Shown here piece after piece: positions 47,303-63,649 of a DNA stretch of 64,000 nucleotides. The translations under genes and the position numbers were made by a program. The number at the start of each line of letters is the position of its first letter. Within the stretch, counting starts at the first letter, position 1. Origin of the DNA: an uncultured Acidobacteriota bacterium (GTDB taxonomy: Bacteria > Acidobacteriota > UBA6911); NCBI GenBank assembly GCA_963827655.1, contig CAWHCF010000041.1, positions 32,001-96,000 of the forward strand, written 5' to 3'. Below the pieces are notes generated by a model. It worked only from the letters and a program-made list of their open reading frames with translations. It did no database searches and was not told where the DNA came from.

Positions 47303-47318
47303 TGGCACGGTGATTGCA
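47303..47318 (+). promoter_or_regulatory. Sigma54 (-24/-12) promoter of the OmpA-family gene
   Basis: TGGCAC-GGTGA-TTGCA, exact consensus and spacing, 70 bp before the ATG. Confidence 0.75.
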
Positions 47319-47387: not shown

Positions 47388-48485
47388 ATGAGAGATTTCG
47401 CAAACCGCCAGCTGTACTTCGCGCTGGTTGTTGCTGTCGTGCTTGCGATTGCCTTACCCGCTACAGCACAACAGAGCACCGCCAAACCAGACGCCCAGAA
47501 GGCGCAGCCGACTCAAACCCAGGCGTCGCAGCCGGCCGCAAAAGCAGAGCCGACCGGTAAGAAAATCGAAGTCAAGGGTACAATCGTGAAGCGGGACGCT
47601 GATACCTTTACCCTGCGAGACCAGCAGGGCCAGCAAACCGTGGTAACGCTTAACAACGAAACAGAAGTCAAGGAAAAGAAGAGCAATCCGTTCCGCCGCT
47701 CCAAGAACTACGCAACGACGCAAATCATGCGCGGTCTCGTCGTGGAGGTCGAAGGACACGGTGATACCGGCAGGATTACGGCAGACGAGATCAGGTTCAC
47801 CGACGTCGACTACAGAATGGCTTCCTCAGTAGAGACGGCGGTGGTCCCAGTCGAGGGTCGCCTGACTCAGAGCGAGACTCGATTGACCCAGGCGGAAACC
47901 AACGCGCAGCGGCTTTCGGGTCAGGTTGACGAGCTGAGCGCCGTGTCGAATGCCGCCAAAGGCGGCGCCAAGGCGGCCCAGGAGACTGCGGATGCCGCCA
48001 TGGCAGGTGTCAACGAAACCAAAACCCAAGTTGCCGCAACCGGCGAAAGAGTGAACCGGACCAACGAACGGATTTCGTCACTGGACGATTATGATGTCAA
48101 GCAGAACCTTGTGATCAACTTCAAGGTCGGCAGCGCGGTTCTTTCGAAAGAGTCGCAAGCCCAGCTCGATACTCTGGCCGAGCAAGCGAAGACCGATAAG
48201 GGGTATGTCATCGAGGTCACCGGGTTTGCGTCCGCCGATGGGAATGAGGATTATAATCGCCGCCTGAGCCACAACCGCGCCGACGCAGTGGTCCAGTATC
48301 TGGCGGAAAACCACATGATCCCGTTGCGGCGGATCATTACTCCCTTCGGCTACGGGGAAAAGCAGCCGATCGCCGACAACGCGACTCGTGACGGCCGGCA
48401 GCAGAACCGCCGCGTGGAGGTCAAGATCCTGATGAACAAAGGGCTGACCGAGACAGCGAAGGCATCTGCGCCCACCGGACCCTGA
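47388..48485 (+). CDS. OmpA-family protein (signal peptide, DUF5666-like OB domain, coiled coil, OmpA_C)
   Basis: F..GS..L, IEVTGFAS..G...N..LS..RA and GYGE..P...N.....R..NRRVE motifs; AGGAGG RBS. Confidence 0.9.
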   Translation: MRDFANRQLYFALVVAVVLAIALPATAQQSTAKPDAQKAQPTQTQASQPAAKAEPTGKKIEVKGTIVKRDADTFTLRDQQGQQTVVTLNNETEVKEKKSNPFRRSKNYATTQIMRGLVVEVEGHGDTGRITADEIRFTDVDYRMASSVETAVVPVEGRLTQSETRLTQAETNAQRLSGQVDELSAVSNAAKGGAKAAQETADAAMAGVNETKTQVAATGERVNRTNERISSLDDYDVKQNLVINFKVGSAVLSKESQAQLDTLAEQAKTDKGYVIEVTGFASADGNEDYNRRLSHNRADAVVQYLAENHMIPLRRIITPFGYGEKQPIADNATRDGRQQNRRVEVKILMNKGLTETAKASAPTGP

Positions 48486-48521
48486 CTGATAAAGGCATGA
48501 ATAGAGTTGTTCTTTGACCGG

Positions 48522-48558
48522 GCGGCTCGCTCCCAGTCGGGGCGAGCCGCTTTTTTTT
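48522..48558 (+). terminator. Rho-independent terminator
   Basis: gcggctcgc...gcgagccgc stem followed by T8. Confidence 0.8.
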
Positions 48559-48588
48559 CTACCAGCATTCTCGAGGGGTGGGGTGATC

Positions 48589-49533
48589 ATGCAAGCCAAA
48601 CAAGCGATAATCAAGCTTGCTCTGGTTTCAATCCTCTCCGTTCCCCCCTTCTGCACGGTTCAATCCCAGACGCTTCCGGGCCAGACTCCCGTCATCCGCG
48701 TCAACGCGAACCTTGTCTCCGTTCCGGTATCCGTGACAAACAATGCGGGAGAACCAGTTCAGAATCTGCGAGCCGAAGACTTCAGAATCGAAGAAGATGG
48801 AAAGCCCCAGACCATTTCGAACATGGGAGAACCGGGCGAGGCCCGGATGGAGCTGGCTCTGCTGTTCGATGTCTCAGGGAGTCTTTTCCCCAAGTTCGAC
48901 TTCGCCAAGGAGGCGGCCTCACGGTTCCTCCAATCAATTCTTCGGCCCGTGGATGCGGTTTCCATCTACACCATCGGTGCCACGCCGCGACGCGTTCTCG
49001 ACAGGACCATGGGCGCGAAAGCCGCACTGGAGGGCCTGGCAGCGATTAAACCCAGTCGCGAGCAAACGGCCTTCTTCGACGCTGTGATGGCAGCCGCAGG
49101 TTCCGTGGGTCAGGGCGCGGCGCCGGATGCGAGACGCGTGGTCGTGGTCCTCTCGGATGGCGAGGACAACAACAGCGAGTCCAACAGGCTGGCCGGCACG
49201 CTTCAGGCGCTGCAGCGCGCCGACTGCATCCTCTATTCGATAAACCCGAGCGGTCCCTCGATTTGGCTGAACAAGGTCAGTCTCAAGGGGCACGAGGTGT
49301 TGAAGCAGCTGGCTTCTCAAACGGGAGGGTCGGCGTTCCTGCCCGATAAACTGGAGGACCTCGATGCGATATTCACGCGCATCGCGGCCGAGATCAAGGC
49401 CCAGTACCTGCTGGGTTACTATCCTCCCGACAATCCGATGGACGGCTCCTTCCGGCGCATTGCGGTACACGTCCCGAAGAGGCCGGAACTCCTTGTTCGC
49501 GCGCGCCAGGGGTACTACACTTCTAAACCGTGA
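48589..49533 (+). CDS. Acidobacterial-type vWA domain protein
   Basis: IRVNANLVSVPVSV, DFRIEEDGKPQ, MIDAS DVSGS, LSDGEDN, QYLLGY and VRARQGYY motifs. Confidence 0.9.
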   Translation: MQAKQAIIKLALVSILSVPPFCTVQSQTLPGQTPVIRVNANLVSVPVSVTNNAGEPVQNLRAEDFRIEEDGKPQTISNMGEPGEARMELALLFDVSGSLFPKFDFAKEAASRFLQSILRPVDAVSIYTIGATPRRVLDRTMGAKAALEGLAAIKPSREQTAFFDAVMAAAGSVGQGAAPDARRVVVVLSDGEDNNSESNRLAGTLQALQRADCILYSINPSGPSIWLNKVSLKGHEVLKQLASQTGGSAFLPDKLEDLDAIFTRIAAEIKAQYLLGYYPPDNPMDGSFRRIAVHVPKRPELLVRARQGYYTSKP

Positions 49534-49595
49534 CTCGTGTCCCTGGTGTTTCTTCGTGTAGTCTCATGCTGGTTGAAACCTCTCGAAGCGTCCCT

Positions 49596-50375
49596 ATGAG
49601 CTTCCGCTCTCTATCATCTATCGTCCTATCGCTTGCGTTTCTCGCAGCCGCTGCTCGTGCCGGGACGCAGAATCAAGATCTCGCACCGCGGCCCGATCCG
49701 ACGACTTCACAGGCCGAACCCGGGCTGTCCAGATCGGACGTTATAAGAACCGCCGAAGAGTATAAAGCCAGCCTCGAAAGGTTGATCCCTTTCCAGGAAG
49801 CCTTCATCAAACGTGCCGCAGAAATGGCGGAGAAGCGGGAGATGCTTTTCGCGCAGGGTCTCATCTCGAAAGTCGAACTCGAGCAGAGTCAGGCCGAGCA
49901 AGCGGACGCTAAAGCGAAGCTGGAGGAGACTCTAACGAAGATTTCGGAATCGGCCAACCTCATTGCCGAAGCCAGGCTGGAGGAAGAGCTCGGGCAGGCG
50001 AAACCGCCAGACCCTGACGTGGTAATTCGCTACACAGGCCCTGAAATCTGGTCGCTCTCGAAACTGGTCAACATCGAGAGCTTTTTCGCCGCTCGATTCG
50101 GCCACACGCTGCCTGTGAGCGCTTTTGGTCAGACGGCGCTGCACGACCGCCTGGGTTTCATGCACGGAGAGGCCATCGATATCGCGCTGCACCCCGACAG
50201 TCCGCAAGGCCAGGAGTTGATGAATTACCTGCGCAGCGCCGGTATATCGTTCATCGCCTTTCGCACGGCCGTGCCGGGATCGGCTACAGGCGCGCACATC
50301 CATATAGGAAAGCCGTCGCCCAAAAGCATCGTCGACTCGCGGCGTGTTCGCAACTTCATAAGTAGCACCTCCTGA
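49596..50375 (+). CDS. Exported coiled-coil protein with putative C-terminal LAS/M15-like Zn-peptidase domain
   Basis: Signal peptide, helical N-half, GFMHGEAIDI and GAHIHIG motifs. Confidence 0.6.
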   Translation: MSFRSLSSIVLSLAFLAAAARAGTQNQDLAPRPDPTTSQAEPGLSRSDVIRTAEEYKASLERLIPFQEAFIKRAAEMAEKREMLFAQGLISKVELEQSQAEQADAKAKLEETLTKISESANLIAEARLEEELGQAKPPDPDVVIRYTGPEIWSLSKLVNIESFFAARFGHTLPVSAFGQTALHDRLGFMHGEAIDIALHPDSPQGQELMNYLRSAGISFIAFRTAVPGSATGAHIHIGKPSPKSIVDSRRVRNFISSTS

Positions 50376-50497: not shown

Positions 50498-51307
50498 CTA
50501 TCTGGATGCGGGCGTGTTCGGAGCTTCGACCAGAATCTTGCCGGTAAGCAGGTAAGCGAGGGTCTGGTTCAGGTCACGCTCATCTGTGGCAGCCAGAACC
50601 AGCCCTCCCGCATCGCGGACCGCGTTGAATCGATCTGCCTTGATATCGAACGCCACGAAATAAATCGAGGCGCGATCCTGTTCGCGCTGCCGGGCGATCG
50701 CTTCCGCGACATCGCCCGGCGAATAACCGCGGGTATTCTGCCCGTCGGTAACGACCAGGATGTGGCGGCGCGAGAGACGGGTCGCGTCCAGGTCGCGCTT
50801 GGCTACGATCATGGCATCGCCGATCGGAGTTCCCCCTTCGGCCTTCAGGCCCTTCAGCGCGGTCTCCGCCGCCCGCAGATCCGGTGGCCCCAGCGGCACG
50901 GATTTCCGGCAGTGCGGCCCTCTATCGCGGGAACTGAATTCGTAGATGCCCAGGCTTATCCGGCGATCTTTGTGCTCGATGGAAAACTTCTCGAACTGAC
51001 GTACCAGCTCCAGGACGGCACGGCGCGCAATCTGGAGTTTAGGCTTCTTTGCTCCGTCGGCATCCTTAACTTTGTCCTTCATGCTTCCCGAAGTGTCCAG
51101 CACAACGATTGCGGCAGTGCCTTCCTGGAATTCGATGTCAGGCGGCAGGCGCAGTTGTTCCTCGACAGGATTTGCCGGCGCCGAGCCGGATCCACCAACC
51201 TGACGGTGGGGCTCGCAACTTGCAGCGAGAAAAGCGCTCAGGGCAACCAGCGCCAGACTCCAACCCGGCCCAGCCAGAGGCTTACTTTTGTTCGGGCGGA
51301 AAGACAC
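50498..51307 (-). CDS. vWA domain lipoprotein (start uncertain)
   Basis: Lipobox-like LAASC; MIDAS DTSGSM, GGTPI and VVTDG motifs. Confidence 0.85.
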   Translation of the reverse strand: MSFRPNKSKPLAGPGWSLALVALSAFLAASCEPHRQVGGSGSAPANPVEEQLRLPPDIEFQEGTAAIVVLDTSGSMKDKVKDADGAKKPKLQIARRAVLELVRQFEKFSIEHKDRRISLGIYEFSSRDRGPHCRKSVPLGPPDLRAAETALKGLKAEGGTPIGDAMIVAKRDLDATRLSRRHILVVTDGQNTRGYSPGDVAEAIARQREQDRASIYFVAFDIKADRFNAVRDAGGLVLAATDERDLNQTLAYLLTGKILVEAPNTPASR

Positions 51308-52988
51308 TGATTTCTACTCGCCGATTCAGAGCGTGATTGGCGGACTCACCGGGATCGGCCGGCTGATCCCACCCTTTCCCCTCGATGGTGAACTTATTGG
51401 GATCGAACTTGAATTTCTCGATCAGAGAGCGCTTGATCGCCTCGGCGCGGGCGAGGCTGAGGTCGCGCACCGCCTGCACTGGAACGCGCCCCTTCATGCT
51501 GGAGTCGGTGTGCCCTTCGATCAGAATGACGGCTCGAGCGAATTGTCCTGCCAGGCGCGCCACCTGCTCGAGCGTCGCGCTTACATTTGGATCATATAGC
51601 TTGCCGGCAACAGTGGAGCCGCTCTCATCGCGCGCAGGCTCGTAAGGGTTCGCCGAATTCGGAAAGAAGTTGATCCGAATGGTCTGGGTCAGGATCGGAG
51701 CTTCTGCGGTGATCTTGCGAAAGCTGGCCGGCGTAAAGGCGGCGACGCTTTCGTCCTTGTGGTGCGCGAACATTCCTTTCTGCTGGATCTTCTGGACGAA
51801 GGTAAAATCCATCACCTGGTCGAACGACGCCGGAGCGTTGATTCGACCCAGCTCGCGATAGACGTAACTTGCGTTCTTCCACGTGCGCTCGAAATTCGTC
51901 GGATTGGAAGCATTCAGGAAAAACTGGATATTTTCCGCCAGGTTAGTCAGGTGCGCGTCGTTGCGCATCTTCATTACGTCTTCGGGTTTCATTCCAAAAG
52001 CATCCGCCATCCAGCGGGCCGCCTCCTCCGGTTTTTCCTTTACCAGATCCATCCCTTCGAAGATCCCGGCAATCAGTCCCTCAACCACCTCGGGATGATC
52101 GCGCACGAAGTCGGCGCGAACTGCGTAAACATCCGCAATCAGCTTGTTGGCGTCAGCCGTACTCGACAGGATGCGCGTCCCGGCAATACGTTCGGGGATA
52201 TTGTAGATATCCGGCGCCCACGAGACGCAGGCGTCCACTTTCTTGTCGGCCACGAATGCGGCCGCGGCTTCGAACGCCGTGGCCGTGTATTTCGGGTTGA
52301 TATCGGCAGGGCGAAGCCCCGCCGAGAGAAGCAGCGAATTCAAGTAGTATTCGCTGGGCGAATTCTGAGCCAGCGTGATGGTCCGCTTGCGCAGATCCGC
52401 GACCGATTTGATGGAGCTGCGCACCACAATCCCATCGCCGCCGTTTGACCAGTCAATCTGCTGAAGGATGCGGGGAGCGGTCCTGGAATCGCGCTGTAAC
52501 TCAGGCGCAAAGAGGGTCATCATGTCCACCGTTCCCCACAGCGTGTGGACCTCGCCGGCGGCGAAAGCATCGCGCGCCGCGACCGGATCGTCCATCAGGA
52601 CCATTTCCAGACGAAACCCGTGTTTCTTGGCAAACACGCTGTCGGGGTTTGGTTTTGTTCCCCGATTGGCCGCAATGACCGGAAGCCAACCGCCCCAGAC
52701 GTTGTAGGAGAAGCGAAGGATCTTCTCGTTCGCATTCCATTTATACTGGCTGACGCCCTTGACGGCGGGCAGACGATCGGCCGGGACGTACTTGTATTCC
52801 TTGACCGTAGTGACTCCCGACGTATCGGGAGCTTCGGTTTGCGGGCCCTCCGCTCCGGGAGTCGCAGCCGAGCGGGGTTGTTGGCTCTTGCGCGCGACGA
52901 TAATCGCGCCGGCCACAATCAACCCCACGATCAGCAGGATCGAAAGAAATTTACCCAAGGTCGTTAACCGGGCTCCTTCATTAGCCAT
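51282..52988 (-). CDS. Membrane-anchored NMT1/SsuA-type solute-binding protein fused to OmpA_C
   Basis: One N-terminal TM; WGGW, DWSNGGDGIV, SWAP and IADV (PBP2 fold); C-terminal IEGHTDS, LS.ARA and NRRVEI. Confidence 0.88.
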   Translation of the reverse strand: MANEGARLTTLGKFLSILLIVGLIVAGAIIVARKSQQPRSAATPGAEGPQTEAPDTSGVTTVKEYKYVPADRLPAVKGVSQYKWNANEKILRFSYNVWGGWLPVIAANRGTKPNPDSVFAKKHGFRLEMVLMDDPVAARDAFAAGEVHTLWGTVDMMTLFAPELQRDSRTAPRILQQIDWSNGGDGIVVRSSIKSVADLRKRTITLAQNSPSEYYLNSLLLSAGLRPADINPKYTATAFEAAAAFVADKKVDACVSWAPDIYNIPERIAGTRILSSTADANKLIADVYAVRADFVRDHPEVVEGLIAGIFEGMDLVKEKPEEAARWMADAFGMKPEDVMKMRNDAHLTNLAENIQFFLNASNPTNFERTWKNASYVYRELGRINAPASFDQVMDFTFVQKIQQKGMFAHHKDESVAAFTPASFRKITAEAPILTQTIRINFFPNSANPYEPARDESGSTVAGKLYDPNVSATLEQVARLAGQFARAVILIEGHTDSSMKGRVPVQAVRDLSLARAEAIKRSLIEKFKFDPNKFTIEGKGWDQPADPGESANHALNRRVEISVFPPEQK

Positions 52989-53000
52989 GGTTCTCTCCTC

Positions 53001-53131
53001 GATTGCAGATTTCGGATTGCAGATTGCGGATTCTATCGATCTCGGATTGCGGATTTAAGAACTCGTCAACAATAGAAATCTGCAGGTCTGTCAAGTCCGC
53101 AATCCGCAATCCGCAATCCGCAATCCGCAAT
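53001..53131. repeat. Inverted heptamer repeat hairpin (GATTGCG / AATCCGC x5)
   Basis: gattgcagatttcggattgcagattgcggatt ... tccgcaatccgcaatccgcaatccgcaatccgcaat. Confidence 0.85.
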
Positions 53132-53133
53132 TG

Positions 53134-53877
53134 TTAGGTCTTCTGGGCAGGGCCAATCTCCTTGGCCGCGGACGGACTCTCAGCCGACGCGGGCGCCTGA
53201 ATTCCCTGGCTCGCCAGAAACTCGGCCAGGGCGGCCTGTTCCAGCGCTTTGCGTTCGTTCTCTTTTTCCTGAACTTTTTCGATATCCACCAGATCTTTGG
53301 CGACACGCGCCTTGCCGGCAGACCTCTCGTAGCGCTTGGCCAGGATCTCTTCCACGCTTTTCATCGTGTCTCCGAGATCGCCCACGCTGAAAGCCGCATT
53401 TCCCAGCGCCGCCGCAGCCTCGGCCTGCGCTTCCTTGATCTGGACCTGCGAAAGCTGTTTTTCGAGTCTGCGCACCTTGTCCCCAAATTCCTTTTGAGCA
53501 AGCTTTGCCTGTCGCAGGTTCGCCTGATAGGCCTCTTCGGTTTCCTGAAGTTCCTGTGTATCGGTGACCAGATCCGCTTTCAGTTCCTGCAACTCTCGGG
53601 CGAGGCTCCCGGCCAGTTCGCTGTTACCTGCCTGATGATTGGCGAGGATTCGCCGCTCGAGTTCCTGGGCCCGGCCGGTTTTCCCCTTCACCTGGTTTTT
53701 CAGGCGTTCGGCGACCCCGGCCATTCGGGCCAGAGCCAGATTGTACTGCACCATCTTGGCGCGAAATTCCTGCCGGGCGGCTTCCATCAAGGCTTCAGGA
53801 TTCCGTTCTTCAATGCCGCTGATAAAGAGGCTCAGGAAGCCTCTAAATAGTGTTCCAATACGAGAAAACAACGCCAT
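53134..53877 (-). CDS. pspA: PspA/IM30 (Vipp1, ESCRT-III superfamily) protein
   Basis: Amphipathic N-helix MALFSRIGTLFRGF, E..NPE motif, long helical hairpin; GGAGGA RBS. Confidence 0.85.
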   Translation of the reverse strand: MALFSRIGTLFRGFLSLFISGIEERNPEALMEAARQEFRAKMVQYNLALARMAGVAERLKNQVKGKTGRAQELERRILANHQAGNSELAGSLARELQELKADLVTDTQELQETEEAYQANLRQAKLAQKEFGDKVRRLEKQLSQVQIKEAQAEAAAALGNAAFSVGDLGDTMKSVEEILAKRYERSAGKARVAKDLVDIEKVQEKENERKALEQAALAEFLASQGIQAPASAESPSAAKEIGPAQKT

Positions 53878-54035
53878 TGCGTTCCTCCCCTCGTAGATAG
53901 AAGACCCCGCGGTTCCGGGTGCCAGCCCCATGCGACCGCTACGACTCCGGCGCGTCCTGGAGCGTCTTCTGTGTCTGGCAGATTACACTCGTCTCAGGGA
54001 AAAATTCGGCCCATTGTAAGTCTTTTTGACATAAA

Positions 54036-54330
54036 AGAGCTCGCGCAGAAATAAGTTCGCATTCTGCTGCAGGCCCGAAGGCCAAGCATAGCTGGCGGTA
54101 TGGCGCGAGCGGAAGCTGGGTCGCAGGTAGGCCCGCGTAGGCCGGTAGCGTCAGCGAACGACCGAGGTCAAAGGCCGGCCGGTCGACCTTCGGCGCTCCC
54201 GCAGGCTACCCGACGGGCCTCGCGGCCCTTAGGTGCCAATACTCACCGAGCAGCTAACAGAAAACGAACCGGTTCATAATTGACCAGCGACACTCGCGCC
54301 AGAATGTGAAGTTATTTCTGCGGGAGCCCT
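54036..54330. mobile_element. MITE-like element with ISAzo13-like terminal inverted repeats
   Basis: ~30-bp imperfect TIR agagctcgcgcagaaataagttcgcattctg / cagaatgtgaagttatttctgcgggagccct; homologous to 30353-30583. Confidence 0.78.
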
Positions 54331-54973
54331 ACGGTTCGTCCGCGGTGGTGATTACCGGGCGATCGATGAGATATCCGATCGCCCAGGCCAGGTCCCGCTC
54401 TACGGCAGCCTTCTTCTGCTGCCACTGGCGCCAGTGCTCCTCATCCTGCGCCGCTTCCCTGCGCAAGCCATCGAGTTCTTCCTGGAGTGACCGGACCTGG
54501 GATTCCAGTTCCGACGTTTTTCGGGCGCGCGCGGTGTTGCGCTGTTCCATCTTCCTGGCGGCGAATCCCTCGAATGCATCCAGCGCCTGGTCGCGGGCCA
54601 CAGCATCCCTCACCACCTCCTCGACCGCCACCTTTTCATTCGCCAGGATGTTGAGAATCGCCTTTTGGACCTCCTCCCGATCCTTCGACTTGAATTGCTC
54701 CGTCTTCAGGAGCTGTTTCAGCCGTTCGACCGTCCAGCCATGAGCTGCGGCCTTTACGCCCGCGGTCGCAAAAATCTGCTCGACCGGAACGGAGAGTTCA
54801 GCCGGTAGTTCGGCCAGAGCGCGCACTTCCTCCTGCCGAATCTCGATCAACAGGTCCTTAAGGCTGACAGTTCGGGTCTGGATCTTGGCGGGACGACTCG
54901 GACTCGTGGCCGGCCTCATTTCGACAATTCCGAGGCGATCGCCTACAGCACGCAAGAGGTCGATCAGATTCAT
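54329..54973 (-). CDS. All-helical hypothetical protein with C-terminal coiled coil
   Basis: 214 aa, 19 bp downstream of the AAA gene; amphipathic N-terminus; DAVARDQALDAFE segment. Confidence 0.8.
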   Translation of the reverse strand: MNLIDLLRAVGDRLGIVEMRPATSPSRPAKIQTRTVSLKDLLIEIRQEEVRALAELPAELSVPVEQIFATAGVKAAAHGWTVERLKQLLKTEQFKSKDREEVQKAILNILANEKVAVEEVVRDAVARDQALDAFEGFAARKMEQRNTARARKTSELESQVRSLQEELDGLRREAAQDEEHWRQWQQKKAAVERDLAWAIGYLIDRPVITTADEP

Positions 54974-54992
54974 CGATAAACCCGGGACGTCC

Positions 54993-56723
54993 CTAAATAA
55001 ATTTTCTCAACTCACCGATTCGTTGTTCCAGATACTCGGGGGTCAGCTCGCGGTATCGAGGAGGCAGGAACCTCGAATCCGTGCACTCTTTGACCGCGAC
55101 CAAATCCATGTACTCGAGCTTGCGGGTGTGTGCGCTGGGGCGAACCTCGTGGAAGACGTCCGCCAGGATCTCTTTCAGTGATTGGCGCGGCTCGGAGGCC
55201 AGCTCGTACGTCCGCAGGGCGCGAACCAGTACTCCTTCAATCTCGTTGCCGCCCAGCACCACGCTTTCCTTGAGGTCGGGAAGATCCGCCTCGGCCAAGG
55301 GAAACTTCAGCTTGCGGGCAATTGCCAGAAGCAGCGCGCGCATCTCTTCCGGAGTCTCCGGTGGAAAGAGAGGTATGTGCACATCGAGCCTCCCCTGGCG
55401 CTTCAAGTCGACTTCCAGCAGGTCGGGTCTTGAAGTGGCAAAGACCCAGATAATCCTGCCGCGATTTCGCGTGTCCGACATCTCTTTCGCGAGCATGGAA
55501 TAGACCCTGCCCGACAGGCCGCTGTCTCCCTCTCCCCCTTCCCGTTTTCCCGCCGCCTGGTCCGCTTCATCCACAAAAACCACAACCTGGCCCAGGGCGC
55601 GGAGCACCGAGAAAATCTTCTCGAGATTCGACTCCGTAGCCCCTACCCAGCGGTCCCGGAAATTCTTGAAGACCACGCAGGGTATCCCGAGTTCGCCGGC
55701 CCAGCATTGCACCAGGAAGGTCTTGCCGGTTCCGATCCGGCCGGCAATCAGGTATCCCATCGGAAGCGCATGGAGCGCTCCGCGTTTAAGAAGCTGGGTG
55801 TCCTCCCGCAACCAGGCTTTGACCGCATCGTGACCCGCGAGATTGTCCAACGTGAAGGAAGATTCAACGAACTCGAGCAGTCCCTGGCATTCTTTTTCGA
55901 TCATCTCCTTTTTCATGCGAGTCAAGAACGCCGACGTGACGGTTTGGTTCTTCTTGAGAGCGATCGAGAGGACTGTGCGCGCGCCGATCCGGCTCAATCC
56001 GGTCAGGCGACGCGCGAGGTTTTCGATAGGTACTTCGCACTTTGAAGGCAGATCCGGAAACTGCGAAGTCACGAGTATTTGAAGATAGTCGAGCATCTCC
56101 GTCTCGCTCGGCAGCGGAATCTTCAGAACGGCGACATGCGGGTTGTCGACAACCAGATCATTCAGATCGTGCAATCCCTCTGCAAGGAGCACGGTCACGA
56201 TGTTCGACTGGAGAATGGCGGGATCGTTTGCCCAGCTCAGGACTTTGACCACATTGGCGCTGAACGCACCGCCCAGCGCCAGGGGATCGCCGCGCGGAAC
56301 GACGAACTCCGCGAAATCAATCACGATCGCAATCTTGCGTGAAGGCGCCTCGCCTTTGCGAAGAGATTGAAGATTCAAGGTCCGGAGTAAATAGCGATCG
56401 AGGAGCTCAAGAGCAGGCCCCGGGTCACGCGTCTGGCCCAATGTGAATGCCTGTTCACCAAGAGCCTGCTTCAACCACTCCCCCCAGTCCTCGGATCCCC
56501 GGCTTAGGCGTATCCCCTTTCCTCGATCGTAATGCATCACGATTTCGTAGCTTTCGAACATCACCTCGTCCAGGAACGTCTTTAGCGGAACGAGCTTTCT
56601 TCCGGAAGGACCCGGCGCCGGGACAATGTCGAAGAGGTTTCCGTGAATCAAAAACTGAGCGACGGATCCCGATTTGAAGAGGTCGCGCATCTCCTCGGCC
56701 CACGAAGGGAGTTCGGAAGTCAC
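54993..56723 (-). CDS. AAA+ ATPase (degenerate N-terminal AAA module plus active classical AAA; Ycf46/Vps4-like)
   Basis: Walker A GRIGTGKT, pore loop RWVGATESN, Walker B VVFVDEAD, SRH ATSRPDLLEVDLKRQGRLD; GTG start at 56723 preceded by AAGGAG. Confidence 0.85.
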   Translation of the reverse strand: MTSELPSWAEEMRDLFKSGSVAQFLIHGNLFDIVPAPGPSGRKLVPLKTFLDEVMFESYEIVMHYDRGKGIRLSRGSEDWGEWLKQALGEQAFTLGQTRDPGPALELLDRYLLRTLNLQSLRKGEAPSRKIAIVIDFAEFVVPRGDPLALGGAFSANVVKVLSWANDPAILQSNIVTVLLAEGLHDLNDLVVDNPHVAVLKIPLPSETEMLDYLQILVTSQFPDLPSKCEVPIENLARRLTGLSRIGARTVLSIALKKNQTVTSAFLTRMKKEMIEKECQGLLEFVESSFTLDNLAGHDAVKAWLREDTQLLKRGALHALPMGYLIAGRIGTGKTFLVQCWAGELGIPCVVFKNFRDRWVGATESNLEKIFSVLRALGQVVVFVDEADQAAGKREGGEGDSGLSGRVYSMLAKEMSDTRNRGRIIWVFATSRPDLLEVDLKRQGRLDVHIPLFPPETPEEMRALLLAIARKLKFPLAEADLPDLKESVVLGGNEIEGVLVRALRTYELASEPRQSLKEILADVFHEVRPSAHTRKLEYMDLVAVKECTDSRFLPPRYRELTPEYLEQRIGELRKFI

Positions 56724-57578
56724 TGGCTCTCCTTGGTCCGCGCCGCTGGTGATTGGGGGCGGCTCCGCGAGCAGATCCTCCATGGCGCCGTAAATCTGCT
56801 GCTGCTCCCTGATCCACTGAGTCGTTCCACCCAGGGTCGTCGTGATCTGATCGATGCGTTCAGAGAGTGTTTCCGGGTCGGTCGACAGAATGGCCTGTTC
56901 GCGAATCAGCTCTACCTGTTCCTGAATCCGGGTCAACTCCGCGTCCAGGAATGCGAGCTTGTCGCGCGCCTCGCTCCTGCGCTCGAGACGCTGTCGTAGA
57001 ATCTCGCTCTGGCTCGACAGACTCTTGCGCAGCTCCTCGGTCAGCGAGTCTTCCTTCAGCCGCGCTTCGAGCTGCCCGATTCTCTCCTTCAAACGCGCCG
57101 AGTCCTCTTCCGCACCGGTTGATTCTCGCACGATCCGTTCAATCGACTGGCGGGTGAGGAGGAGGCGAAGGAAGATCCAGCTCAGACGCCCCAGCCCTTC
57201 TCCCTGCGTATCAATTACGGGCGCTGAGAGCGAACTCCGTGATTGCTGCTCCAGAATCGACCGGCACCGATGTTCGAACAGGCGGTACCGGCCCTGGTCC
57301 GCTTCGCCCAGTTGTCTGATCAGGCTGTTAAGTCTGGCCTGCCAGTCGCCTTGATTCCTGGCCAGCCGCGAGGCTACGACTGTTCGCTGAAAGCGCGGGT
57401 TGGTTGCGAGGAAGCCGAGATAACCCAGTTCAAGTCCCGCGCCGATAAGCCAGAATCCGGGATTCAAGATCCCTAGGAATCCGAAGAGGCCAAGACCGAT
57501 CCAGTTGGGAGCGACAAACATGCCCACCGGACGAGCATTGAAGGCTGCGCGGATGTAATCGCCCAAACCGAGTTTCAT
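56720..57578 (-). CDS. Membrane protein with 2 N-terminal TM segments and long coiled coil
   Basis: Hydrophobic N-terminus then heptad-rich region; alternative-frame end ARTKESQ-TGA overlaps the AAA GTG; appears fused to the AAA gene in this assembly. Confidence 0.7.
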
Positions 57579-58405
57579 GTTCCCTCTGCTGACTGCCTGC
57601 TGCTTTTGTCCACCCGGCGGAAGGCTTCTGTTACCACCGAAACTGCTTTCTTAAAATCAGGCCGTTCCTGTGCCACCAGCGGGGGTATCCCGGCCGAAGG
57701 CGGAATATTGTCTCGAATATCGTAGGCAATCTGGCCTGGCGCGTGACTAAAAATCCAAACCCGTTCGCCAAGGTAGACCGCCTCGGTCACACTATGGGTG
57801 ACGCACAAGATCGTAGGATGTATCCGGTGCCAGAGTTCAACCAGGAGTTCTTGCATCTCAAACCGCGTTGGCTCGTCGAGGGCAGAGAAGGGTTCGTCCA
57901 TGAGAAGAATCTGGGGTTCCATCGCGAGTGAGCGCGCTATGGCAACCCGCTGCTGCTGCCCTCCTGAAAGCTGATGAGGGTACTTGTGCTCATGACCCGA
58001 CAATCCAACCTGTTCGATAAGATTGCTGGCGCGGTCGCGGCGCGCATTTTTGTCCAGATTCATTTCAACTCTATTGATCTCGAGGCCGAAAAGGACATTA
58101 CCCAGCACGGTAAGGTGCGGAAAAGAGCTGTACTGCTGGAAGATCATTCCGCGCTCGCGACCAGGACCCGCTACCGGTTGCCCCTTGATCAGAACCGCGC
58201 CTTCCGTGGGACGCAAAAAGCCTGCAATCAGATTCAAGGCCGTACTCTTGCCGCACCCGGAAGGGCCGATGATTGTAACAAACTCTCCCCGATCCGCCAC
58301 ATCCGGGATTGCAAACGAAAGATCAGTAATTGCGGTAAATGCTCCGAATCGAACCGTTACACTGCGAAACTCCACGATGGGCGCCGGAGATGTATCAGCG
58401 TTCAC
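57575..58405 (-). CDS. ABC transporter ATP-binding protein (NitT/TauT family)
   Basis: GPSGCGKST, YPHQLSGGQQQR, LLMDEPFSALD and VTHS motifs; overlapping start/stop junctions at both ends. Confidence 0.93.
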   Translation of the reverse strand: MNADTSPAPIVEFRSVTVRFGAFTAITDLSFAIPDVADRGEFVTIIGPSGCGKSTALNLIAGFLRPTEGAVLIKGQPVAGPGRERGMIFQQYSSFPHLTVLGNVLFGLEINRVEMNLDKNARRDRASNLIEQVGLSGHEHKYPHQLSGGQQQRVAIARSLAMEPQILLMDEPFSALDEPTRFEMQELLVELWHRIHPTILCVTHSVTEAVYLGERVWIFSHAPGQIAYDIRDNIPPSAGIPPLVAQERPDFKKAVSVVTEAFRRVDKSSRQSAEGT

Positions 58406-59232
58406 GCGCGGCTCCGCCGGTACGGAAAGAGGCGACTGCCGAGTTGTCCCCAAGCCTGATCGGCAATCCAGGAAATCAGCGAGATCACTATGATCGTGAG
58501 GTAGATGTGTTCTCTCGGGCCGCGCCGTCGCGAAATCTCGATCAAGTAGCCCAGTCCATCGACCAGTACGACGACCTCAGCGAGCACGAGATAGGTCCAG
58601 CCCACGCCGAAGGCCAGGCGCATCGAATGCCAGATGTCGGGCAAGGCAACCGGGACGAGCACCTTTCTGACTATCTGGAAGCGCGAGGCGCCCAGCGTGA
58701 AGGCTGTTCGCAGGTAGACGTCGGGAACGGCATCGATGGCTTTGGCCACAAGTGGCAAGAGGTAGATTCCAAATGCCATGGCCAGGAAAATGATTTTTTG
58801 CAGCTCGCCGGTACCGAACCAGGACATCGTGAGAGGCACCAGCGTCGCAATCGGAACGTACCCGCTCGCGGTCACAACGGGAGTGAACGCCGCGCTCGCG
58901 CTCCCGAAAGCGCCCATCAGAATCCCAAGGGGGAAGACGATCGCCAGGGCAAGGAGGTAACTGAGACCAACACGCTGCAGGCTGGCTCCGATATGGAGCA
59001 GGAGGTTTCTGTCGGTCAGAAGCTCGGGCACGCTCTGAAGAACTTCGCCCGGACTGGGAAGGATCGTGGGTGCTATGCTTCGCTCTTCCGCGGGTCCCAA
59101 GGTCAGGATCCACCACAGCAGAATCAGCAACGCCACCGGTACCGCGCCGAGAAGAATCGCCATGCTGCGGGGAACTTCCCCTCGAACCGCGACAAACCAT
59201 GCAGGTATCATAGGTTTGACGACCTTACGCAA
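58402..59232 (-). CDS. ABC transporter permease (NitT/TauT family)
   Basis: LPSPGEV, SLQRV, WFGTGE, EAA-like loop AFTLGASR and GW..LVLAE..GLGYLI motifs. Confidence 0.92.
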   Translation of the reverse strand: MRKVVKPMIPAWFVAVRGEVPRSMAILLGAVPVALLILLWWILTLGPAEERSIAPTILPSPGEVLQSVPELLTDRNLLLHIGASLQRVGLSYLLALAIVFPLGILMGAFGSASAAFTPVVTASGYVPIATLVPLTMSWFGTGELQKIIFLAMAFGIYLLPLVAKAIDAVPDVYLRTAFTLGASRFQIVRKVLVPVALPDIWHSMRLAFGVGWTYLVLAEVVVLVDGLGYLIEISRRRGPREHIYLTIIVISLISWIADQAWGQLGSRLFPYRRSRA

Positions 59233-60231: not shown

Positions 60232-63200
60232 CTAATTGGCGGCCGTGTAGATATAGTCATTCGATTGCCATACGCCGCTGATCTTCGACCAGAGTCTCAC
60301 ATAGAGCGTGCTCCCATTGGTCGGCAGGCCGGAAACTGTTACCGACAGGCTTGCTCCTTGGGATTGAGTGTAGACCTCGTAACCTCCAGGGCTCGTCCCT
60401 ATGTACACCCAGTATTCGGATACTCCACTACCGACACTCCACGTGAAGGTGACTACGGAGGAGGTCAGAGTCGATCCGGGCGTCGGGCTCGTCATCTGCG
60501 CCTTAGTCGCGTTACCTCCCGCCGTGTAGATATAGTCATTCGATTGCCATACGCCGCTGATCTTCGACCAGAGTCTCACATAGAACGTGCTCCCATTGGT
60601 CGGCAGGCCGGAAACTGTTACCGACAGGCTTGCTCCTTGGGATTGAGTGTAGAACTCGTAACCTCCAGGGCTCGTCCCTATGTACACCCAGTATTCGGAT
60701 ACTCCACTGCCGACACTCCACGTGAAGGTGACTACGGAGGAGGTCAGAGTCGATCCGGGCGCCGGGCTCGTCATCTGCGCCTTAGCGCGTACCTCCGGAA
60801 GCCGCCGTGTAGGTATAGTCATTCGATTGCCATACGCCGCTGATCTTCGACCAGAGTCTCACATAGAGCGTGCTCCCATTGGTCGACAGGCCGGAAACTG
60901 TTACCGACAGGCTTGCTCCTTGGGATTGAGTGTAGAACTCGTAACCTCCAGGGCTCGTCCCTATGTACACCCAGTATTCGGATACTCCACTACCGACACT
61001 CCACGTGAAGGTGACTACGGAGGAGGTCAGAGTCGATCCGGGCGCCGGGCTCGTCATCTGCGCCTTAGTCGCGTTACCTCCGGAAGCCGCCGTGTAGGTA
61101 TAGTCATTCGATTGCCATACGCCGCTGATCTTCGACCAGAGTCTCACATAGAGCGTGCTCCCATTGCTCGACAGGCCGGAAACTGTTACCGACAGGCTTG
61201 CTCCTTGGGATTGAGTGTAGAACTCGTAACCTCCAGGGCTCGTCCCTATGTACACCCAGTATTCGGATACTCCACTGCCGACACTCCACGTGAAGGTGAC
61301 TACGGAGGAGGTCAGAGTCGATCCGGGCGTCGGGCTCGTCATCTGCGCCTTAGTCGAGTTATCTCCGGGAGCCGCCGTGTAGGTATAGTCATTCGATTGC
61401 CATACGCCGCTGATCTGCGACCAGAGTCTCACATAGAGCGTGCTCCCATTGCTCGACAGGCCGGAAACTGTTACCGACAGGCTTGCTCCTTGGGATTGAG
61501 TGTAGAACTCGTAACCTCCAGGGCTCGTCCCTATCTCCAGCCAGTATTCGGATACTCCACTACCGGCACTCCACGTGAAGCTGACTACGGAGGAGGTCAG
61601 AGTCGATCCGGGCGTCGGGCTCGTCATCTGGGCAGGAGCGGTGGTGCCGGTATTGTGTAGGTAGCCGTAAAGGTGGTGTTGGTAGCAGGAGTGGCAATGT
61701 TGTGGGCGGCCGCTCCTCCATCAGACCAGGAGACGAAAGTCCAGGTCGTGCCATTCACGTTTTGCGGTGAAACGGCTTCGAGATTTCGCATCAGTCCGGC
61801 CACGCCAACGAAGGAAAACGGCGTCGTGACAGGCTGGCCATCGAGCTTCATCTGCAATCCAGGCGGGATGGTTGCCAGACTCACGGTTGAGACGCGCGGG
61901 AGAATGTCCCGGAACGAACTGTGGGTCAGACCGCCCGAATCCTGGACCGTGAGGTGAATACGGTACCAGACATTGGGACTCGTCTCGCCCGTGGTTGGAA
62001 TTACAAAAGAGCCTGTTTGGGATCCTGATGTCGGCGGGACAAAAGGATGGAAATGATTGTCATGATGAAAATCCACTCGCCACGTGAAGGCTGAAGCTGG
62101 AAGGGTACCGTCCTCGGAATCCGTGCCGATGCCGGCGTAGCCGATAGTGTTACCGGCTGTATAGATGGTGCCGGCCGTCGGTTGCGTGATGCTGCCGGTC
62201 GGGGGACTGTTGCCGGTCACGGTGAGGACGGCCTCATTACTTGTGGCGCTTCCGTAGGAGTTGGTAACTACACAGCGGAATAACGCGCCACTATCCGAGA
62301 ACTGGGCCGCGATGGTATAGCTGGACGAACTGGCGCCAGAAATGTTGTTACCGTTCCGCTGCCACTGGTAGTAAAGGGGTTGGGCGCCTGACGCGGTCAC
62401 CGAGAATGTCGCTGGTTGGCCGACAGAGACAGTCTGGCTCGCAGGGTGTCTTGTGATGCCAGGCGTGGGATTGGCAGTATAGTCGATTCTGAAAACACTG
62501 CCCAAGCCGAACGCCAGATAGTACAAACTACCATCAGGCCCTACCTGAAGGTTCAACGGGTAACCAACATCGGTGGCAAACTCGACGACCGAACCGTCGT
62601 TAGGGTCAAGGCGATTTATCCAGCCGTTGCAGAGGTCCGAGAAGAAGTAATTGCCGAGATATTCGGCCGGAAAAGTCGGGAACGAAGGATTATAGAAAAC
62701 GCCGCCGGTAATTGCGCAGCCTGAAGGGGTGCCTCCATGCGAATAGGCAAAAAATGGTGTCCTGTATTGCGATTCATTGGTAGGACCTTCGGTGTCGGGC
62801 CAGCCGTAGTTCGATCCTGCGATGCCGTCGTTGATCTCCTCCCAGGTCTCGTTTCCCACATCGTTGATGAACATTCGCCCGGTGCCGGGCTGGAATGCGA
62901 AGGTAAAGGGATTGCGAAGACCCAGGGCCCAAATCGCCCGATTGTTGCCCGTGGTCGCGGAGTAGAAGGGATTGTCCGCGGGAATAGTGCCGTCTGGATT
63001 CAAGCGGAGTATTTTCCCGAGTAGATTATTCAGCGTCTGGGCGTTGGGCCCGAAGGCATTCTCGCCCACAGCGGCATAGAGCTTCCCGTCGGGACCGAAA
63101 TGAATGGCTCCGCCGTTATGGGCTATGGCGTTGCTCAGGTTGTCCAATTCCAGGATCACGACTTCGCTTCCCGGCACGGCCACATCGCCGGCGGCAGTGA

Positions 63201-63558
63201 ACCGGCTAATCCGGTTGTGGATCGCCGGTGTGGTTGCAGTGTAGTAGACGTAGAGATACTGGTTGGACGTAAAATTCGGATCGACGGCGACACCCAGCAA
63301 ACCAGCCTCGCCATTCGTAGGAAAGCTCACTGCGAGGTCCACGAACGACGTGGATAGCAGGGTCCCGTTTTTGATGACCCGCAAACTTCCCCATTGTTCG
63401 CAGACGAAGATCCGCCCATCGGGTGCAAGAGCCATTGCGGTCGGATTGAAGAGACCGGTTGCAATCTCTGTTTCGGAAAATCCACTCGGAAGGTTTGCGC
63501 CATAGAGTGAAGCTGAACTCAGCCACGCGACAACTATCAAACCAATATACCGATTCAT
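60232..63558 (-). CDS. Secreted PQQ-dependent sugar dehydrogenase-like (GSDH propeller) protein with Ig-like domains and five C-terminal repeats; frameshifts at ~61630 and ~60790
   Basis: Signal peptide; LPSGF, HNGG..FGPDGKLY, GKILRLNPDG..P.DNPF, GLRNP, WEEIN..NYGWP; Ig I-set PASQTV..YQWQRNG; repeats AQMTSP.PGSTL. Confidence 0.82.
60242..61632 (-). repeat. Five tandem ~280-bp near-identical coding repeats (~94-aa Ser/Thr-rich beta-sandwich)
   Basis: Anchor gccgtgtag at 60242, 60521, 60804, 61089 and 61374 (periods 279, 283, 285, 285). Confidence 0.92.
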
Positions 63559-63649
63559 GGGTGGTCCTTTTCGCAGCGCAGTGTTCGACCCACGCACTTT
63601 GCGAAGCGGTTCGCCTTCGCTGCCTCACCGTACCTAAGCGGAAAACAGT

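Follow-up and report, generated by a model that had tools for sequence, protein, structure and literature searches.

In an uncultured Acidobacteriota bacterium, a gene cluster on the minus strand (50498-59232) was analysed within a 64,000-nucleotide (nt) stretch of contig CAWHCF010000041.1, referred to here as the window; the genome comprises 8.18 Mb and is 90% complete. Seven open reading frames (ORFs), called on the window and all on the minus strand, fill the cluster (Table 1). They encode the permease and ATPase of an ATP-binding cassette (ABC) transporter, a protein with a transmembrane (TM) hairpin and a cytoplasmic helical/coiled-coil domain (TMCC), a tandem AAA ATPase, a helical protein of 214 amino acids (aa; hel214), PspA, a fusion of a TM anchor with a solute-binding protein (SBP) and an OmpA-like domain (TM-SBP-OmpA), and a vWA lipoprotein. 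The co-directional arrangement at these coordinates agrees with an earlier model-made prediction for this DNA (the original prediction). Its description of the genes as mostly joined by overlapping start and stop codons was generous: three of the six junctions do overlap (by 52 nt, as ATGA and by 26 nt), but the other three are gaps of 19, ~450 and 145 nt, the two longer ones lying on the two sides of pspA. No convincing second small ORF was found in the gap between 54329 and 53931. Comparison of related loci shows that TMCC, the tandem AAA, PspA and SBP-OmpA form one conserved unit, and the cluster is a further member of an operon type already catalogued from genome comparisons.

Table 1. Genes and features of the PspA/AAA cluster, with their positions in the window.
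Feature	Position	Strand	Remarks
ABC permease, NitT/TauT-like, 276 aa	58402..59232	-	PF00528 62 bits; at least 5 hydrophobic segments
ABC ATPase, 292 aa	57575..58453	-	PF00005 116.6 bits; stop overlaps next start as ATGA
TMCC (TM hairpin and cytoplasmic helical/coiled-coil domain)	56720..57578	-	fused to AAA in the window
2-nt deletion site fusing TMCC to AAA	56738..56739		2 extra letters in 4/4 runs
Tandem AAA ATPase, 576 aa from GTG at 56723	54993..56723	-	PF00004 83 bits
hel214, helical, 214 aa	54329..54973	-	without family match
PspA/IM30, 247 aa	53134..53877	-	PF04012; ORF extends to 53931, homologues begin at MALFSR
PspA C-terminal tip KEIGP, after variable linker	53149..53163	-	K239, G242 and P243 invariant
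TM anchor, SsuA/NMT1-type solute-binding domain and OmpA-like domain, 568 aa	51282..52988	-	PF09084, PF00691
vWA lipoprotein, 269 aa, accessory	50498..51307	-	PF13519 43.5 bits

With the AAA ATPase as anchor, a species-genome collection yielded 170 confirmed relatives; the 80 best loci were analysed, with genes called by a per-locus codon model and counts restricted to loci whose flanking DNA was long enough. Of these, 75 of 77 have TMCC upstream of the AAA gene, 70 of 72 have PspA no more than 2.5 kb downstream of it, and SBP-OmpA comes next in 62 of 64. These loci span Acidobacteriota, Gemmatimonadota and Planctomycetota, and the proposal of one conserved system centred on PspA and the AAA ATPase is borne out by them. 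The 51 loci with room for the full cluster differ in gene content. Twenty are of the window type, with hel214, permease and ABC ATPase in all 20 and vWA in 15. Thirty have an SBP-like-OmpA protein (26-32% identical) without hel214 or ABC genes, vWA being present in 18 of these, and a single locus has none of hel214, the ABC genes, SBP-like-OmpA and vWA. Taken over all 51 loci, vWA is present in 33 and absent in 18. In a Vicinamibacterales-type variant (L006, L007, L009, L035, L046, L051 and others, at ~13.2-14.9 kb in the locus), a gene encoding a flavin oxidase with a Tat signal lies between SBP-like-OmpA and vWA (PF01593, ~490 aa; HpnE-like at 59-81 bits, below the cut-off); it has no counterpart in the window type.

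A second survey was anchored on SBP-OmpA (236 relatives, the best 80 analysed), and 45 of its loci have at least 6 kb on both sides. Among these 45, PspA is found in 40, TMCC in 41, AAA in 38, and the permease and the ABC ATPase in 40 each; hel214 is present in 28. These loci show at least five gene orders and reach further phyla, with Ignavibacteriae, Omnitrophota, Riflebacteria-type and Desulfatitalea metagenome-assembled genomes among them. An independent distribution of the ABC and SBP genes, which the original prediction had weighed against itself, was not found at these loci. In Ozemobacteraceae/Riflebacteria-type loci (L268, L271, L275-L277), pspA lies between two SBP-OmpA genes.

The association of PspA with the AAA ATPase extends to AAA relatives that are only 34-41% identical. 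Where the AAA is 37-41% identical (L084-L086), tblastn matches to PspA and TMCC adjoin it at all three loci, in the order pspA-SBP.OmpA-perm-abc-TMCC-AAA at L084 and PspA-TMCC-AAA at L085 and L086. Nine further loci have an AAA that is 34-38% identical, and PspA was detected by PF04012 (62-128 bits) in six of the nine, the neighbours of L088, L092 and L095 having been scanned only in part; all six also carry a membrane/helical protein of 280-340 aa. At two distant loci (L091:6929-7933 and L093:10391-11407), a neighbour of the AAA is a 334-338-aa protein with a TonB_C domain (28-29 bits), a different partner that reaches the periplasm and takes the place of SBP-OmpA. In Gemmatimonadota (L024, L027, L033, L039, L045, L069-L072, L079), the four core genes are placed between hrcA-dnaJ-prmA-rsmE-HIT and mutS2-dnaG, a housekeeping/heat-shock setting.

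Among the genomes sampled, members of the AAA family (E <= 1e-100) occur in 29 of 301 from Acidobacteriota, 7 of 151 from Gemmatimonadota and 26 of 201 from Planctomycetota. Such patchy spread, together with identities above 70% across phyla and weak IetA/IteA-type matches of the AAA, would suit an anti-phage or conflict system that moves horizontally and whose AAA, vWA and membrane effector act on infection. However, PADLOC returned only generic ATPase-level matches (IetA, 44 bits) and nothing for four of the eight proteins, Pfam and NCBIfam scans found no nuclease, toxin or mobile-element gene in the window cluster, and the Gemmatimonadota setting described above is no defence island. A role in conflict is considered most improbable.

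The PspA protein of the window belongs to the PspA/Vipp1 family (ESCRT-III superfamily) and is the only member in the genome, being its sole PF04012 match. The score of 34.9 bits (35.1 in the genome scan) exceeds the PF04012 cut-off of 33.9 by a narrow margin. A PDB search with the single sequence gave no PspA chain and only TPR/coiled-coil noise, and a profile built from 41 PspA homologues matched the Vipp1 structures 8qfv, 8qhv and 7o3w at E 2e-6 to 1e-5, residues 1-172 aligning on 1-163. The subfamily is highly conserved: the window protein is 74-85% identical to its homologues in three phyla, with a mean column identity of 80%. At one related locus (L010, 10779-12613), two tandem PspA genes lie 3' of the AAA gene.

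All AAA-linked PspA proteins close with an amphipathic helix that is conserved, then a variable linker rich in Pro, Ala and Ser, and lastly a short tip. The window PspA has the helix ALAEFLASQGIQ and the tip KEIGP, while the tips of distant members read KTLGP, RTLGS, KTMGP, KELGP and KEMGP. The pattern [KR][TED][ILM]G[PSAK] was sought in the last 40 residues of each PspA. Among AAA-linked PspAs it was found in 39 of the 41 close ones, 8 of the 9 distant ones and 27 of the 30 from rearranged operons (74 of 80 in total); it was found in none of 15 control tails and in 22 of 8000 shuffled tails. The control tails were ORFs at PspA/Vipp1 matches in two acidobacterial-class genomes without the AAA family and in five cyanobacterial genomes without a full match to the AAA N-domain; one of these ORFs (L319) is perhaps miscalled. 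Judged by these counts (74/80 against 0/15), a K-[T/E]-hydrophobic-G-P tip is specific to AAA-linked PspAs. The tip is a new detail of this analysis.

Motif content and alignments identify the ATPase as a tandem classical AAA protein with a degenerate D1 and a D2 that has every motif of a substrate-threading motor. A conserved N-terminal LPxWA helix precedes the degenerate D1 (~residues 20-285) and the active-type D2; the first 285 residues follow the beta-alpha order typical of AAA domains, and HGN stands at the P-loop position. All 45 sequences compared keep the motifs GRIGTGKT, WVG, DE and RQGR unchanged, and we take these to be Walker A, pore loop 1, Walker B and the arginine fingers, respectively. 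The best PDB sequence matches are the D2 domains of VAT, Cdc48 and p97 (E 1e-35 to 1e-31). Scores against family models lie far below the cut-offs throughout, with 65 bits for CDC48 (TIGR01243; cut-off 803), 34 for CdvC (NF041006; cut-off 650), 59 for FtsH and 46 for PAN. The predicted structure has a mean predicted local distance difference test (pLDDT) score of 69, the N-domain being mostly at 75-93. Foldseek aligned it over 580-686 columns to Rix7, Cdc48, Pex1/6, AFG2, NVL and NSF, with E 1e-10 to 1e-8 and TM-scores of 0.25-0.35. A search of 1.84 billion representatives gave 2698 clusters of the N-domain family at E <= 1e-3.

A maximum-likelihood tree of D2 domains (30 rows, unrooted, with a small reference set) placed the 13 PspA-linked D2 domains in one clade (100/100). 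A branch with 100/100 support separates this clade from nine Asgard Vps4-like sequences (themselves 99/99), from CDC48 D1 and D2, from two PAN sequences, from the genome's own FtsH and from an IteA-like sequence. No MIT domain was found among the Pfam and NCBIfam matches of the AAA, and its N-terminal 285 residues align as the degenerate D1. Nothing in these comparisons ties the AAA to Vps4 by descent and it appears to form a clade of its own, so that a Vps4-like ATPase in the genealogical sense does not stand (no MIT; 34 bits against 650 with the CdvC model; 100/100 separation from the nine Asgard Vps4). Kinship with Ycf46 gained little support: the N-domain profile gave no full match and one partial match (33.5 bits) in the five cyanobacterial genomes, a comparison made without a named Ycf46 sequence. 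A literature search returned no paper pairing 'Ycf46' with 'Vipp1'.

In the window, TMCC and AAA are read as a single 861-aa ORF (54993-57578), in which the TMCC part with its hydrophobic hairpin and coiled coil is followed by the PF00004 match at 610-736. In relatives, the two are separate genes in all 66 loci where both parts were called; most of the 66 pairs overlap by ATGA or GTGA, and 10 are in the same frame with a stop between. Contigs from four metagenome runs, three of DNA (from three studies) and one of RNA, all have two extra letters at 56738/56739, which restore a stop after ...KESQ that overlaps the GTG start (GTGA). In the window itself, the +1 frame immediately ahead of the AAA start ends in ...ARTKESQ and a stop, matching the C-termini of relatives, and the genome collection's own gene call is the 576-aa AAA protein (P0001). 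The fusion thus goes back to a 2-nt deletion that only this assembly has, either an assembly error or a recent variant. Because of this deletion the window holds seven ORFs and not the eight genes originally predicted; eight separate genes are nevertheless the state of the population, as the runs and the relatives keep them apart. The RNA-run contig spans the TMCC/AAA junction, a weak hint of transcription.

If the deletion at 56738-56739 is an assembly error, further frameshifts may exist in this genome. Natural TMCC-AAA fusions were sought among proteins of 818-856 aa from the representative search and rejected, since these proteins have two inactive N-domains and the AAA, without TMCC. In four of them (P0122, P0124, P0127 and P0178), the two inactive N-domain copies precede the active AAA domain; a fifth protein from the search, P0146 (608 aa), looks frameshifted.

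As a separate gene in relatives, TMCC encodes ~285 aa; in the window ORF, the hydrophobic hairpin is at residues 20-45. The predicted structure of TMCC is all-helical (pLDDT 81). It has no Pfam family, and its fold gave best values of E 0.12 with Foldseek (BAR domains) and Z 9.5 with VIA, in the generic range of helical bundles and with no ESCRT-III chain listed. Similarly, hel214 had no match in Pfam, NCBIfam, a PDB profile search or PADLOC, and in the Atlas it matched only unnamed acidobacterial clusters.

The permease, the ATPase and the SsuA/NMT1-type binding protein appear from their family-model matches to belong to the NitT/TauT ABC importer family. For the permease, SaoP (121 bits) and TauC (108 bits) come nearest among the NCBIfam models, at scores far below the cut-offs, and the ABC ATPase is TauB-like at 210 bits (cut-off 357). 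TM-SBP-OmpA has one TM segment (residues 14-32) and matches the OmpA-like peptidoglycan-binding family PF00691 at 42.6 bits (cut-off 27.2), PF09084 at 37.1 bits and SsuA_fam at 67 bits; in the PDB it matches SsuA (2x26, E 1e-8) and Omp38 (3td3, E 2e-9). No equivalog cut-off that would name the substrate was reached, and a search for riboswitches or other RNAs that would name a ligand gave nothing above chance.

These matches raise the question of whether the cluster consists of two independent neighbours, a plain NitT/TauT nutrient importer for sulfonate, taurine, nitrate or the like and a separate Psp module. Models of the NitT/TauT type match the permease, the ATPase and the SBP, the gaps of ~450 and 145 nt set pspA apart, and four of the 45 SBP-OmpA loci lack both PspA and AAA. 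The binding protein, however, is joined in one chain with a TM anchor and an OmpA domain, the transporter models all remain far below their equivalog cut-offs, and SBP-OmpA is accompanied by PspA, TMCC and AAA in 38-41 of the 45 loci despite at least five rearrangements. Moreover, SBP-like-OmpA is kept without ABC genes in 30 of the 51 full-room loci. Two unrelated units are therefore regarded as a very unlikely explanation. The same 30 loci indicate that the ABC transporter is accessory and not, as first supposed, an integral part of the system. Since SBP-like-OmpA persists without ABC genes nearby, a role of the binding domain as sensor or tether is more likely than one confined to an importer.

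The vWA protein has a hydrophobic signal at residues 11-29 followed by the lipobox LAASC, and a DTSGS motif in its sequence. It would therefore be periplasmic, as the signal peptide and lipobox suggest. The analogy with AAA+/vWA chaperone pairs drawn in the original prediction fails on both sides, the AAA being of the classical clade and not MoxR, and the vWA protein an exported lipoprotein that is optional (33/51). Searches for sigma-70 promoters and terminators gave nothing above chance, and the best sigma-54 site 5' of pspA is a match with two mismatches, at chance level.

The gene content of the cluster has been described before. In an in silico study, Ravi and colleagues reported that PspA co-occurs with a protein carrying two AAA+ domains, the N-terminal one inactive, and catalogued an operon type with PspA, tandem AAA, TM protein, ABC ATPase/permease and PBPB-OmpA (Ravi et al., mSystems 2024; PMC11237479), of which the window is another instance. 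The guess that comparative surveys had noted similar neighbourhoods was thus right, and so was the statement that no experimental characterization was known: full-text literature searches found no experiment on this operon. The passages of that paper on this operon type draw the same Snf7/Vps4 analogy and propose roles for the OmpA and solute-binding domains; they also mention polyamine oxidase genes in other PspA operons. They name the TM protein a Snf7 homologue, whereas PF03357, hhalign against PspA (1.3%) and fold searches gave no such match here; the more sensitive methods of those authors may still prove right. In the same passages there is no mention of hel214, the vWA lipoprotein, the three variants or the PspA tail tip. 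As the idea has already been published (in silico, in 2024, in one paragraph), the value of the present analysis lies in testable detail and not in discovery of the layout.

The likeness to ESCRT-III with Vps4 or CdvC is that a gene of the polymer-forming ESCRT-III superfamily adjoins a classical-clade AAA whose pore loop is intact, and that a flexible linker bears a conserved tip at the C-terminus of the polymer subunit. The MIM tails of ESCRT-III are of the same kind. In contrast to Vps4 and CdvC, the AAA here has a degenerate D1 instead of MIT, and would be tethered by a separate TM protein and coupled to periplasmic proteins. Bacteria are described as apparently without a Vps4-like ATPase in the relevant part of a 2025 review (PMC7619361). 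Similarly, vps4 with ESCRT-III systems is stated to be confined to archaea and eukaryotes (Makarova et al., 2024; PMC10936438), and the passage on Vps4 in a 2026 review of cyanobacterial and chloroplast ESCRT-III (PMC13051332) names it for eukaryotes and archaea only. For the dismantling of bacterial PspA/Vipp1 polymers, the operon supplies specific candidates for a motor, an anchor and a recognition tip; it occurs commonly in Acidobacteriota, Gemmatimonadota and Planctomycetota of soils.

Classical Psp and Lia systems, as outlined in PMC11237479 and PMC7619361, include pspF-pspABCDE of E. coli, liaIH-GFSR of B. subtilis and clgR-pspA-pspM-pspN of M. tuberculosis, and share with the present cluster a PspA effector and a small integral membrane partner. 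The cluster differs in having no PspB/C, PspF, LiaI/F/S/R, ClgR or PspM/N; Pfam and NCBIfam scans of its proteins detected no PspB/C, PspF or Lia domains, in agreement with the original prediction, and PspC and Snf7 domains had no match in the whole 8.18-Mb genome (90% complete). Further, the AAA is of the unfoldase type and not a PspF transcription activator, and the PspA subfamily is unusually conserved. With the type II tandem AAA unfoldases Cdc48/p97/VAT, Rix7, Pex1/6 and AFG2, the ATPase shares two AAA domains and its best sequence and fold matches; unlike Cdc48/p97, it has a D1 without a P-loop (HGN), scores 65 against 803 with the CDC48 model and falls in a separate D2 clade. The folds of permease, ATPase and binding protein are those of NitT/TauT importers (SsuABC, TauABC), but the binding protein is membrane-anchored, OmpA-fused and persistent without the transporter in related clusters.

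The operon is proposed to encode a PspA-centred machine for maintenance of the inner membrane, in which the AAA acts directly on PspA polymers; we give this proposal about an even chance of being correct. Because the TMCC and AAA genes are translationally coupled, the TM hairpin of TMCC would keep the AAA hexamer on the cytoplasmic side of the membrane. PspA would polymerize on stressed membrane and be recognized by the AAA, plausibly through the conserved C-terminal helix, the linker and the K-[T/E]-hydrophobic-G-P tip. The AAA may then extract or unfold PspA subunits, so that the polymer is remodelled or recycled, a cycle that would work like that of Vps4 on ESCRT-III but be of independent origin. 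TM-SBP-OmpA would tie the site to peptidoglycan and report a periplasmic ligand or the state of the envelope, and in the window variant the NitT/TauT ABC transporter, hel214 and the vWA lipoprotein may add transport or sensing of that ligand. A fuller version, an independent bacterial ESCRT-III/Vps4-like cycle in which the tethered AAA reads a MIM-like PspA tip and strips subunits under the gating of a peptidoglycan-tethered SBP, is offered more tentatively and is somewhat doubtful.

The original prediction had the AAA cycling PspA polymers, which stays an inference, and had asked for a predicted complex, which lends weak support. The AAA N-domain with PspA scored 0.32 (runs of 0.27, 0.35 and 0.32), against 0.00 for the best of three controls, with contacts agreeing to at least 84% and a partner pLDDT of at least 59. 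Of 80 solved complexes, 58 attained the mark used for such predictions, as did 2 of 110 mismatched pairs; at scores of 0.60 or lower, only 7 of the 80 and both mismatches did so.

A different substrate would fit some of these results. The AAA may act on a membrane protein (TMCC, TM-SBP-OmpA or damaged inner-membrane proteins) by Cdc48/Msp1-type extraction, with PspA only sealing the site. Its nearest sequences and folds are the extraction and unfolding machines Cdc48/p97, Pex1/6 and AFG2, it would be membrane-tethered through a partner, and the support from the PspA complex test was weak. Yet, besides TMCC, only PspA follows the AAA family through all tiers of divergence, the PspA tails bear the family-specific tip, and Pfam and NCBIfam scans found no protease or degradation partner in the cluster. 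A membrane-protein substrate is considered unlikely, although clearly worth bearing in mind.

Several points weigh against direct action of the AAA on PspA within such a machine. The complex score of 0.32 for the two falls in a range in which, without a good prior, most passes are wrong, with no interface reported, and residues 328-405 of D2 have pLDDT below 50 in the model. The putative role of TMCC as an anchor is read from its topology. TMCC and hel214 were tried as hidden PspA paralogues and rejected, with hhalign probabilities of 1.3% and 0.3%, so homology of TMCC to PspA is not detectable, and there is no Snf7 (PF03357) match in the genome at E 0.01. Kinship of TMCC with PspM (Rv2743c, PF25587) was suggested by an Atlas feature score of 0.86 and rejected, as none of 40 TMCC members matched at E <=10. 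Further, 2 of the 72 AAA loci lack PspA (L025, L077), 4 of the 45 SBP-OmpA loci lack both PspA and AAA (L219, L237, L247, L254), and no promoter, terminator or riboswitch was found that would define operon units or a ligand.

Three convergent genes on the plus strand (47388-50375), encoding an OmpA-family protein, an acidobacterial VWFA protein and an unknown protein, lie beside such a cluster in none of the 80 related loci and are not part of the PspA cluster. The OmpA-family gene (47388-48485) heads this plus-strand unit and is followed by VWFA (TIGR03436) and the unknown protein (281 aa). A perfect sigma-54 consensus, TGGCAC-N5-TTGC, is located ~70 nt 5' of the OmpA-family gene (47303-47317, plus strand) and is the only match without mismatch in the window. 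Upstream of the cluster, two adjacent and partly overlapping ORFs of 196 and 281 aa (60232-61627, minus strand) have the same weak Pfam matches (DUF3823_C, YcxB and Biotin_lipoyl); they come after a gene for a glucose/sorbosone dehydrogenase with Ig domains at 61624-63597.

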